Below, piece after piece: positions 820 through 2,325 of a DNA stretch of 64,000 nucleotides. Below the pieces are notes generated by a model. It saw nothing but the letters and a program-made list of their open reading frames with translations, ran no database searches and had not been told where the DNA came from. Source of the DNA: Escherichia coli. GTDB taxonomy: Bacteria; Pseudomonadota; Gammaproteobacteria; Enterobacterales; Enterobacteriaceae. Each line of letters starts with the position of its first letter. Position 1 is the first letter of the stretch. The position numbers and the translations under genes are program-made. The stretch lies in NCBI RefSeq assembly GCF_024223415.1, contig NZ_CP100500.1; one strand, 5' to 3'.

Positions 820-2325
820 TCATGGCATGGCCATGAGCATTTTCACGTCCGCATCACCGTCTGCTGACGTCTGTGGCACGCCACCCTGTACCGCTGCCGG
901 TGAATGGTTCGCCATGAAATGTTCAAACATGGCGGTTGTGGATGCAGAGACCGGTTCTGCCTTACCTGATCCCGCAGCCAGCACAGCCCGGGCGTTCTCC
1001 ACGGTCATTCCCGGGCAGGCAGCCAGCTGTTCAGCCTGCGCCTCAGCCCCTTTTGCCTCATCCAGGGCCATGATCTGATCACGGAGTGATGGTCCGGCAT
1101 CCGCCTGCGGTGAAGCTGCCAGGATCGGGCGGGCTTTTTCCACCGTCATCTCCGGCATCGCCGCCAGCGTTGCCGCCAGTTGTTCACGACCTTTCGCCTC
1201 TTCACACGCCATAATGCGATCGGCTTCACTCTGCGCGGATGCCACCGGCTGCTGTGGTGCCGCCGCGGCCAGGATCTCCCGGGCCTGTTCAACGCTCATG
1301 CCCTGTTGTCCCGCCAGCATCGTGGCAAGCTGTTCACGTCCTTTCGCTTCCTTACTCGTCAGGATCCCCATCACTCGCTGGTTCTCCTGCGCGGCGGCTT
1401 CCGTTGCAGTTAATTGCGGCATAGTGCCTCCTGTATCATGTGTGTACAGCGCCGTGGTCATCACACTGATGGCATCCGACGCATTGACTAATTCATCCGC
1501 CAGCCCGGCCTCAATGCCGGACTGACCTTCAAAAACGGCGGCCTCTGTTCCCGTGACCACATCCACAGACAGCCCGGTATACATCGCCACTTTTTCGGCA
1601 AACATCCGGTGTGCCGCATCAATGCGCTGCTGCATGTCCTGACGCACCTCTTCCGGTAAGGCTTCAAACTGATTGCCATCCACCTTGTGCGCCCCGGCAT
1701 AAATCAGCGTGATATCCACACCGGCCTGCGCCAGATGACCGGCATAGCTGAGATGGCTCATCATCACGCCAATGGAGCCGATACGGGATGTCTGGGTAAC
1801 CAGCCGTCGGGAGCAGGCCGACGCCAGCAGCATGGCTGCAGAACAGGCCGTGTCATTGCACAGTGCCCAGACCGGCTTCTGCTGACGGAGGCGGTAAATC
1901 ATGTCAGCGCAGTCAAACGCGCCTGCGACCTGCCCGCCCGGACTGTCAATGTCCAGCAGTACGCCCCGGACAGCGGTGTCCGCCATTGCCTGCTGAAGAC
2001 AGGCGACAATGCCGTCATAGCCTGTCATTCCGGAAAATGGCCGCATACCACCCAGCCGGTGCACCAGCATGCCGGTCACCGGCAGTACAGCAATACCGTT
2101 CACCACCCGGTAAACACGGGCCGGTCGTTTACCTCCGGCCATGTACTCGTCCGTTTCAGCCAGCATTCCGGGAGCATCAAGCTGTACCTGCTGTTGTGGT
2201 ACCGAAAGACTTGCTGCCCCCATCTCGCGCCCGAGCGCGCAAAAGAAAACCCGCGCATAGGCGGGCTCCAGAAGCAGCGGTTCATTGAATGCTGCGGCAA
2301 TAATGTGTGAAAGATTACGTCTCAC
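820..2325 (-). CDS. Head maturation protease / scaffold (lambda gpC/Nu3-like, S49 ClpP-like peptidase)
   Basis: 501 aa, GTG start; AFNEPLLLEPAYARVFFCAL and SIGVMM...LIYAG.HKVDGN motifs as in lambda C; C-terminal scaffold motif triplicated. Confidence 0.85.
   Translation of the reverse strand: MRRNLSHIIAAAFNEPLLLEPAYARVFFCALGREMGAASLSVPQQQVQLDAPGMLAETDEYMAGGKRPARVYRVVNGIAVLPVTGMLVHRLGGMRPFSGMTGYDGIVACLQQAMADTAVRGVLLDIDSPGGQVAGAFDCADMIYRLRQQKPVWALCNDTACSAAMLLASACSRRLVTQTSRIGSIGVMMSHLSYAGHLAQAGVDITLIYAGAHKVDGNQFEALPEEVRQDMQQRIDAAHRMFAEKVAMYTGLSVDVVTGTEAAVFEGQSGIEAGLADELVNASDAISVMTTALYTHDTGGTMPQLTATEAAAQENQRVMGILTSKEAKGREQLATMLAGQQGMSVEQAREILAAAAPQQPVASAQSEADRIMACEEAKGREQLAATLAAMPEMTVEKARPILAASPQADAGPSLRDQIMALDEAKGAEAQAEQLAACPGMTVENARAVLAAGSGKAEPVSASTTAMFEHFMANHSPAAVQGGVPQTSADGDADVKMLMAMP
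970..1374 (-). repeat. Three tandem ~45-48 codon in-frame repeats inside the C/Nu3 scaffold region (EAKGREQLAxxLAxxPGMTVExARxILAA)
   Basis: Protein residues ~318-452 show three consecutive copies; nucleotide repeats visible (cagctgttcagcctgcgcctc / cagttgttcacgacctttcgcctc / aagctgttcacgtcctttcgcttc on plus strand). Confidence 0.7.

Follow-up and report, generated by a model that had tools for sequence, protein, structure and literature searches.

The window analysed here is a stretch of 64,000 nucleotides (nt) of Escherichia coli DNA from contig NZ_CP100500.1 of RefSeq assembly GCF_024223415.1, and the element under study is a repeated protein unit encoded in a phage head gene. This head protease/scaffold gene lies on the minus strand at 820–2325, where the list of open reading frames (ORFs) gives it a GTG start and a product of 501 amino acids (aa). 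Judged by its sequence, the gene belongs to a lambdoid prophage of the E. coli chromosome and represents the phage 21 type of the head protease-scaffold gene known in lambda as C/Nu3. The C-terminal part, which is common to the protease and the scaffold, contains three in-frame copies of a unit of about 40 residues (36–46). All three were matched by two hidden Markov models (HMMs) of the unit, the second of which was built from the first unit of each of 101 diverse, mostly single-unit homologues. Unit 1 (1252–1389, minus strand; aa 313–358; ...QENQRVMGILTSKEAKGREQLATMLAGQQGMSVEQAREILAAAAPQ) matched with E values of 3e-24 and 7e-25, unit 2 (1105–1230, minus strand; aa 366–407; ...SEADRIMACEEAKGREQLAATLAAMPEMTVEKARPILAASPQ) with 2e-27 and 4e-21, and unit 3 (967–1089, minus strand; aa 413–453; ...SLRDQIMALDEAKGAEAQAEQLAACPGMTVENARAVLAAGSG) with 2e-24 and 2e-16, the second value in each pair coming from the 101-homologue model. 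By unit HMM, the spacing from unit to unit is 53 and 47 residues (159 and 141 nt). Three profile matches place the scaffold-type motif RIMxIL..EAKGRE..LA..PGMTV..A..ILAAAP in this shared part. Unit 1 has the long N-terminal helix seen in single-unit homologues, and unit 3 reads KGAE where the consensus has KGRE. The best internal local alignment of the 200-aa scaffold scored 102, compared with 37 ± 6 (maximum 60) in 300 shuffles (z = 10.5). The unit HMMs and the shuffle test together bear out the sequence-only reading that the motif occurs here, at the coordinates which that reading gave (970–1374), as three consecutive copies that keep the frame.

That reading had also described the repeats as visible in the nucleotides, which holds in part. 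A nucleotide-level repeat search recovered three ungapped 97-nt copies at 65–70% identity, spaced 141 and 150 nt apart; the signal is faint, and Tandem Repeats Finder, run on positions 1–4000, called nothing in the repeat region because the units are too diverged. Codon-aligned, the units are 57–68% identical in nucleotides and 50–61% in amino acids, and only about half of the residues identical between units use the same codon. These figures bear on the suggestion that the triplication is an assembly artefact, in which a tandem repeat was expanded or collapsed and the real copy number is different. Tandem repeats in general can be mis-assembled, and natural copy-number variants of this region do exist, with two to four units. 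Assemblers, however, would not confuse units so diverged and so unequal in length and spacing, in a region where the repeat finder calls no repeat at all. Of 5,426 complete E. coli genomes, 1,865 (about a third) carry the gene at ≥80% coverage, mostly at 95–99% identity, and among the 40 matches listed every full-length one was 1506 nt long except one of 1507 nt. Two separately deposited records of phage 21 have the same length. We therefore give the artefact virtually no credence.

Nested within the gene is an in-frame ORF of 200 aa (820–1422, minus strand), co-terminal with the protease and homologous to phage 21 gene 6 (gp6) and lambda Nu3. Its ATG at 1420–1422 is preceded, 4 nt upstream, by the Shine-Dalgarno sequence AGGAGG at 1427–1432 on the same strand, as read from the sequence. 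Both phage 21 records (M81255.1 and OL657228.1) annotate an equivalent ribosome-binding site and internal start for gene 6; OL657228.1 calls the product of the co-terminal ORF a scaffolding protein, and M81255.1 calls it gp6. The window, phage 21, Gifsy-1, and lambda all conserve the internal Met, with GG(T/R)M as its context, and the PHROG family phrog_8399 ("head scaffolding protein") matches the scaffold in three stretches. Two co-terminal proteins should be encoded in one frame, a full-length S49 protease and a 200-aa scaffold. In lambda, the RefSeq nu3 start at 5132 (201 aa; L003 2333–2938) falls within the protease domain, and the counterpart of the gene 6 start in phage 21, and of the Shine-Dalgarno sequence and ATG in the window, is by alignment a Met 70 codons downstream, which would give a Nu3 of 131 aa. 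The RefSeq nu3 start in lambda may be too far upstream.

The units are followed by a single-copy C-terminal tail (823–966, minus strand; aa 454–501) made of a spacer, a short helix (AMFEHFMANH), and a predicted disordered end (...KMLMAMP). The window and lambda (LDRLMQ...DLLNTPV) share a tail pattern of F/L-x-x-F/L-M ... LL/LM-x-x-P. The short helix of the tail (AMFEHFMA; ALDRLMQ in lambda) resembles the first helix of the unit (ADRIMA / RDQIMA), and from this likeness the tail may be the remnant of an additional, truncated unit.

The triplication is already on record for phage 21. GenBank M81255.1, "Bacteriophage 21 head gene operon", marks three repeat_region features in gene 6, named "Tri1 box", "Tri box", and "Tri3 box", with the note "function unknown; putative". 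In a gapless alignment the Tri1 box (M81255.1 5542–5645) corresponds to window 1252–1355 and overlaps unit 1, the Tri box (5682–5792) to 1105–1215 and unit 2, and the Tri3 box (5823–5936) to 961–1074 and unit 3, all on the minus strand of the window, so that the three boxes coincide with the HMM-defined units. The paper behind this record is reportedly that of Smith and Feiss (Gene 126:1, 1993), and the record itself is said to date from the early 1990s; our statement of prior description is based on its feature table. Phage 21 gp5 is 94.8% identical to the window protein in amino acids, with 501 of 501 residues aligned and no gaps, and gene 6 has the same nested start and ribosome-binding site as the scaffold ORF of the window. 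The roughly 5% of residues that differ include some within the units (TSKEAKG in the window and TCQEAKG in phage 21; EAKG and EANG in unit 2). The neighbours also agree, namely the portal, the decoration protein (SHP, 97% identical), and the major capsid protein (98% over 126 aa). The window copy belongs to a chromosomal prophage, whereas phage 21 is an isolated phage. The gene occurs in seventeen phage records, including M81255.1 and OL657228.1, at 92.8–95% amino acid identity. The triplication is thus ordinary, and the prophage head module that has it is very common in E. coli. The sequence-only reading had missed the Tri box annotation, along with the minus-strand orientation and the nested scaffold ORF with its own ribosome-binding site.

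The N-terminal two thirds of the 501-aa protein is the peptidase. An S49 (SppA-type) peptidase domain (Pfam PF01343 Peptidase_S49, E 6e-36, 124 bits) covers 1453–1890 on the minus strand (aa 146–291), and a PDB search matched it to the Bacillus subtilis SppA structures 3rst and 4kwb at E 4e-16. The Ser of "CSAA" and the Lys of "GAHKVD" align with the active-site region of SppA, and we take them to be catalytic as they are there. A gene of the lambda C/Nu3 type would also be expected to confer protease activity and the removal of the scaffold from the prohead. In E. coli Ch1, the closest complete-genome match (99.9% identical), RefSeq labels the gene "S49 family peptidase".

The flanking genes, also on the minus strand, are those of a lambda-type head operon. 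The portal ORF (2315–3907) shares 11 nt at its 3' end with the 5' end of the protease/scaffold gene; downstream lie the ORF of a 115-aa decoration protein (436–783) and the 5' end of the major capsid gene (1–378), of which the window, beginning inside the gene, covers only 126 aa. The same order of portal, protease/scaffold, decoration, and major capsid is annotated in Ch1, phage 21, lambda, and Gifsy-1. The prophage seems to span about the first 26 kb of the window, with an integrase-sized ORF at 25167–26297, and the stretch from about 26000 to 64000 resembles E. coli chromosome, with large operon-like runs of ORFs and a tRNA-Tyr gene at 51178–51262. Two adjoining tRNA genes of the prophage (10797–10950, minus strand) lie downstream of the Q antiterminator region; one is tRNA-Lys(TTT) and the other has a CAT anticodon, called Met by ARAGORN and Ile by RefSeq in Ch1, i.e., a probable lysidine-type tRNA-Ile2. 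Three genes of the Ch1 prophage (major capsid, tail tip J, and one for replication) are frameshifted pseudogenes according to RefSeq, and that prophage may therefore be defective.

The sequence-only reading, which gave lambda C/Nu3 a single unit, was right on this point. Lambda C (NC_001416) is a homologous S49 protease, 52% identical over aa 3–408, and both the alignment and the 101-homologue HMM place one unit in it (E 1e-27). Lambda C/Nu3 and the window gene have the same operon position, the conserved internal Met, the same unit, and a similar tail pattern. Lambda C differs in having one unit in 439 aa, compared with three in 501 aa, and in carrying a 36-residue unique insert upstream of its unit. 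The same HMM found three units in phage 21 and in Gifsy-1. The Gifsy-1 prohead protease of Salmonella (STM2605) is 62.9% identical overall to the window protein, with three units at the same positions; its linker 1 is slightly shorter, its C-terminal end is longer, and its unit 3 retains the KGRE Arg, unlike unit 3 of the window.

Eight three-unit homologues, 46–96% identical overall, were compared unit by unit. Units at the same position in different phages were on average 62% identical, against 55% for units at different positions in the same phage. The nearest relative of window unit 2 was unit 2 of Gifsy-1 (81%), units 1 and 3 of Gifsy-1 had their nearest relatives at the corresponding positions of P0042, which also has three units, and the single unit of lambda was closest to the unit-1 type. 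From these sequences the units lean towards grouping by position. Because of this lean, and because Gifsy-1 has the same three units, the triplication is dated by the sequence evidence to before the 21-type head modules of E. coli and the Gifsy-type ones of Salmonella diverged; the low identity among the units likewise marks it as old. Within the same eight homologues, mean column identity was 81% in unit 1, 73% in unit 2, and 72% in unit 3, all without gaps, whereas the linkers showed 35–49% identity and contained insertions and deletions (indels). By this measure all three units are under constraint (purifying selection), and the Pro/Ala/Gln-rich linkers drift and gain or lose residues.

Constraint of this kind also bears on whether it is the DNA of the repeats that counts, for example as sites where regulatory proteins bind or as signals for recombination in the head operon, with the periodicity of the protein as a by-product. 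The repeat is detectable in nucleotides, and OL657228.1 annotates two "CII binding site" pattern matches (ttgynnnnnnttgy) inside the scaffold ORF, which could be taken as hints of such a role. The conservation, however, tracks the protein: the frame is kept, indels fall only in the linkers, about half of the identical residues have different codons, and the same protein unit recurs in hundreds of distant homologues. The CII pattern is short and degenerate, and its two matches do not amount to one per unit. A role as DNA is accordingly very improbable. The two matches themselves lie on the opposite strand (L002 2409–2422 and 2643–2656, equal to window ~1404–1417 and 1170–1183); they look like mechanical pattern matches, and no evidence of function was found for them.

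Among homologous lambda-type head modules the copy number of the unit ranges from one to four. A four-unit allele of E. coli prophages (P0033/L007), in which the 101-homologue HMM found four units, was present in about 105 of the 5,426 complete E. coli genomes; it lies in the same head module, with the same unit and tail, and the 342-aa major capsid protein there shares 82% identity with phage 21 gp7. An identity of 92% between the last two units marks the allele as a younger expansion, and no isolated phage in the collection carries it. In some prophage copies (P0017, P0018) unit 2 has been lost in frame, and strain GN02270 (L006) has an in-frame deletion of 19 residues within unit 2, LAATLAAMPEMTVEKARPI. 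The unit 2 deletions correspond to window ~1111–1218 and seem to run between similar "REQLA...ILAA" stretches. Two unrelated stand-alone scaffolds (P0124, P0201) have two units each, which points to independent duplications. The apparent "2 stretches" in P0143, P0173, P0178, P0197, and others were rejected as really one unit plus a weak spurious match.

In the wider family a single unit is the rule. The unit profile matched 763 cluster representatives at E ≤ 1e-3 among 1.84 billion, and 132 of the 144 newly returned representatives (among 150 listed) have one unit. In the listed matches the single unit lies a median of ~50 residues from the C-terminus, in proteins of either 400–550 aa or 120–200 aa, and Peptidase_S49 was present in all six of the long (400–550 aa) homologues scanned. 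What a homologue search with the 200-aa scaffold recovered was for the most part incomplete fragments from E. coli and Salmonella, which made it poor for a census, though the two- and four-unit variants came from it. Some collection entries were unusual. Three predicted proteins (P0042, P0114, P0115) are chimeric: their scaffold or protease sequence is fused to foreign stretches, namely a non-protease N-terminal segment, minor tail protein L, and part of a tape-measure protein. They are probably rearranged prophages, cloning constructs, or gene-call artefacts. A fourth (P0161, 258 aa) reads as the Gifsy-1 protease/scaffold with systematic changes of A to V, T to I/M, P to L/F, S to F/L, R to C/W, and H to Y. 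These are the translation of DNA with C replaced by T; the probable source of the entry is an assembly, within the public collection, of reads that had been bisulfite-converted or deaminated in some other way.

The variation in copy number raises the question of whether function resides only in the lambda-like unit 1, units 2 and 3 being a tolerated spacer or relic that lengthens the scaffold. A single unit suffices in lambda, in-frame deletions have removed some or all of unit 2 from GN02270, P0017, and P0018, and unit 3 of the window is without the consensus Arg; the 36-residue insert of lambda also partly offsets the difference in length with non-repeat sequence. Units 2 and 3 do not, however, behave like the linkers. 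They are gap-free and nearly as well conserved as unit 1 (72–73% vs. 81%), in a comparison where the homologues are only 46–60% identical overall and where the linkers fall to 35–49% with indels. At most positions that are nearly invariant in the wider family, each still has the family residue, and both are readily recognized by a mostly single-unit profile. The module has moreover been duplicated independently in the two-unit scaffolds and expanded to four in the E. coli prophages. On this evidence, spare units are unlikely.

The unit was modelled with AlphaFold2. Unit 1, run with the 101-sequence alignment, gave a compact three-helix domain (pLDDT 93.4, pTM 0.77) with predicted helices at residues 2–17, 26–33, and 40–49. 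A model of the whole 200-aa scaffold, from a shallow alignment and with a pLDDT of 68, repeated the helix pattern three times with low-confidence linkers between, and placed a tail helix at scaffold residues 162–173, with pLDDT <50 at 155–159 and 174–192. The models predict that each unit folds independently as a small three-helix domain and that the scaffold would be three such beads and one short tail. No Pfam or NCBIfam model covers the unit, and only sub-threshold noise (HHH_5, HTH_15, T2SSK) was returned; it is included, though, in PHROGs families of head scaffolding and maturation protease proteins. Searches of the PDB by sequence and by profile gave nothing for the scaffold part, and matches of that part to haemoglobin and DacD entries (E 0.07–0.45) were dismissed as chance.

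The scaffolding protein of phage P22 binds coat protein through a C-terminal helix-turn-helix (HTH) domain and is a plausible analogue for how such a scaffold docks on the shell. The analogy is functional only, a small helical module in the C-terminal part of an otherwise flexible scaffold. A P22-type two-helix basic HTH at the extreme C-terminus (gp8 residues ~238–303) was not found in the window protein, by sequence or as a significant fold match. The unit differs from it in having three helices, in being repeated, in having another 48 residues after it, and in being close to neutral in charge, where the P22 domain is basic. The P22 and phi29 scaffolds are discussed in PMC11922011.

Taken as a whole, the explanation that we favour is a phage-21-type gene with an old, fixed triplication, folded modules, and a proposed role in attachment, and we hold it with good confidence. 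An old in-frame tandem triplication produced the three copies, now fixed in the 21/Gifsy lineage. The unit would be the element that attaches the scaffold and the protease inside the assembling prohead, and its partner would be the major capsid protein or the portal, or other scaffold chains through self-association. For lambda Nu3, interactions have been described with Nu3 itself, with C, with the portal protein B, and, by yeast two-hybrid, with the capsid protein E (PMC3224144). The unit is the likeliest attachment handle, or means of association between scaffold chains, because no other element of this class of scaffold is strongly conserved and because protease and scaffold both contain it. 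Three copies would make the chain multivalent, with higher avidity or the bridging of several partners, and the geometry of the capsid would be unchanged by copy number. The specific proposal that the unit is an attachment or self-association module, multivalent in the 21-type scaffold, is tentative, and we put it at somewhat less than an even chance. A scaling of copy number with capsid size was considered and ruled out: the major capsid proteins are 341–342 aa in one-, three-, and four-unit systems alike, and the genomes of lambda and phage 21 are 48.5 and 42.9 kb. These capsid proteins are 59–62% identical between lambda and the multi-unit systems, and 82–84% among the three- and four-unit systems.

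Several points weigh against this explanation. The single-copy C-terminal tail, and not the units, could be the element that binds the capsid. Natural variants are without part or all of unit 2, so that either fewer than three units can suffice or the prophages concerned are defective, and unit 3 of both the window and phage 21 is without the near-invariant Arg of KGRE. Expression from the internal start is deduced from the sequence and the phage 21 annotation. Lambda gpNu3 is also reportedly termed "intrinsically disordered" in the title of a 2011 paper by Medina et al., and this description sits uneasily with a module that is predicted with confidence to be folded.

As a discovery the triplication carries little weight, being annotated in phage 21 and carried by roughly one in three complete E. 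coli genomes. What value remains lies in the unit, which alone among the elements of Nu3-type scaffolds is widely conserved and which has neither a Pfam or NCBIfam model nor a solved structure. A bolder possibility, which we regard as doubtful, is that the unit is an autonomous three-helix "scaffold docking" domain whose copy number (one in lambda, two in some lineages, three in 21/Gifsy, and four in some E. coli prophages) acts as an evolvable valency dial. If this were true, the number of capsid or scaffold partners per chain would change with copy number and, through it, the ratio of scaffold to coat, while the T=7 shell of lambda type stayed as it is. The natural alleles with 1, 2, ~2.5, 3, and 4 units on closely related capsid proteins offer a ready series on the effect of scaffold valency in lambda-type prohead assembly.

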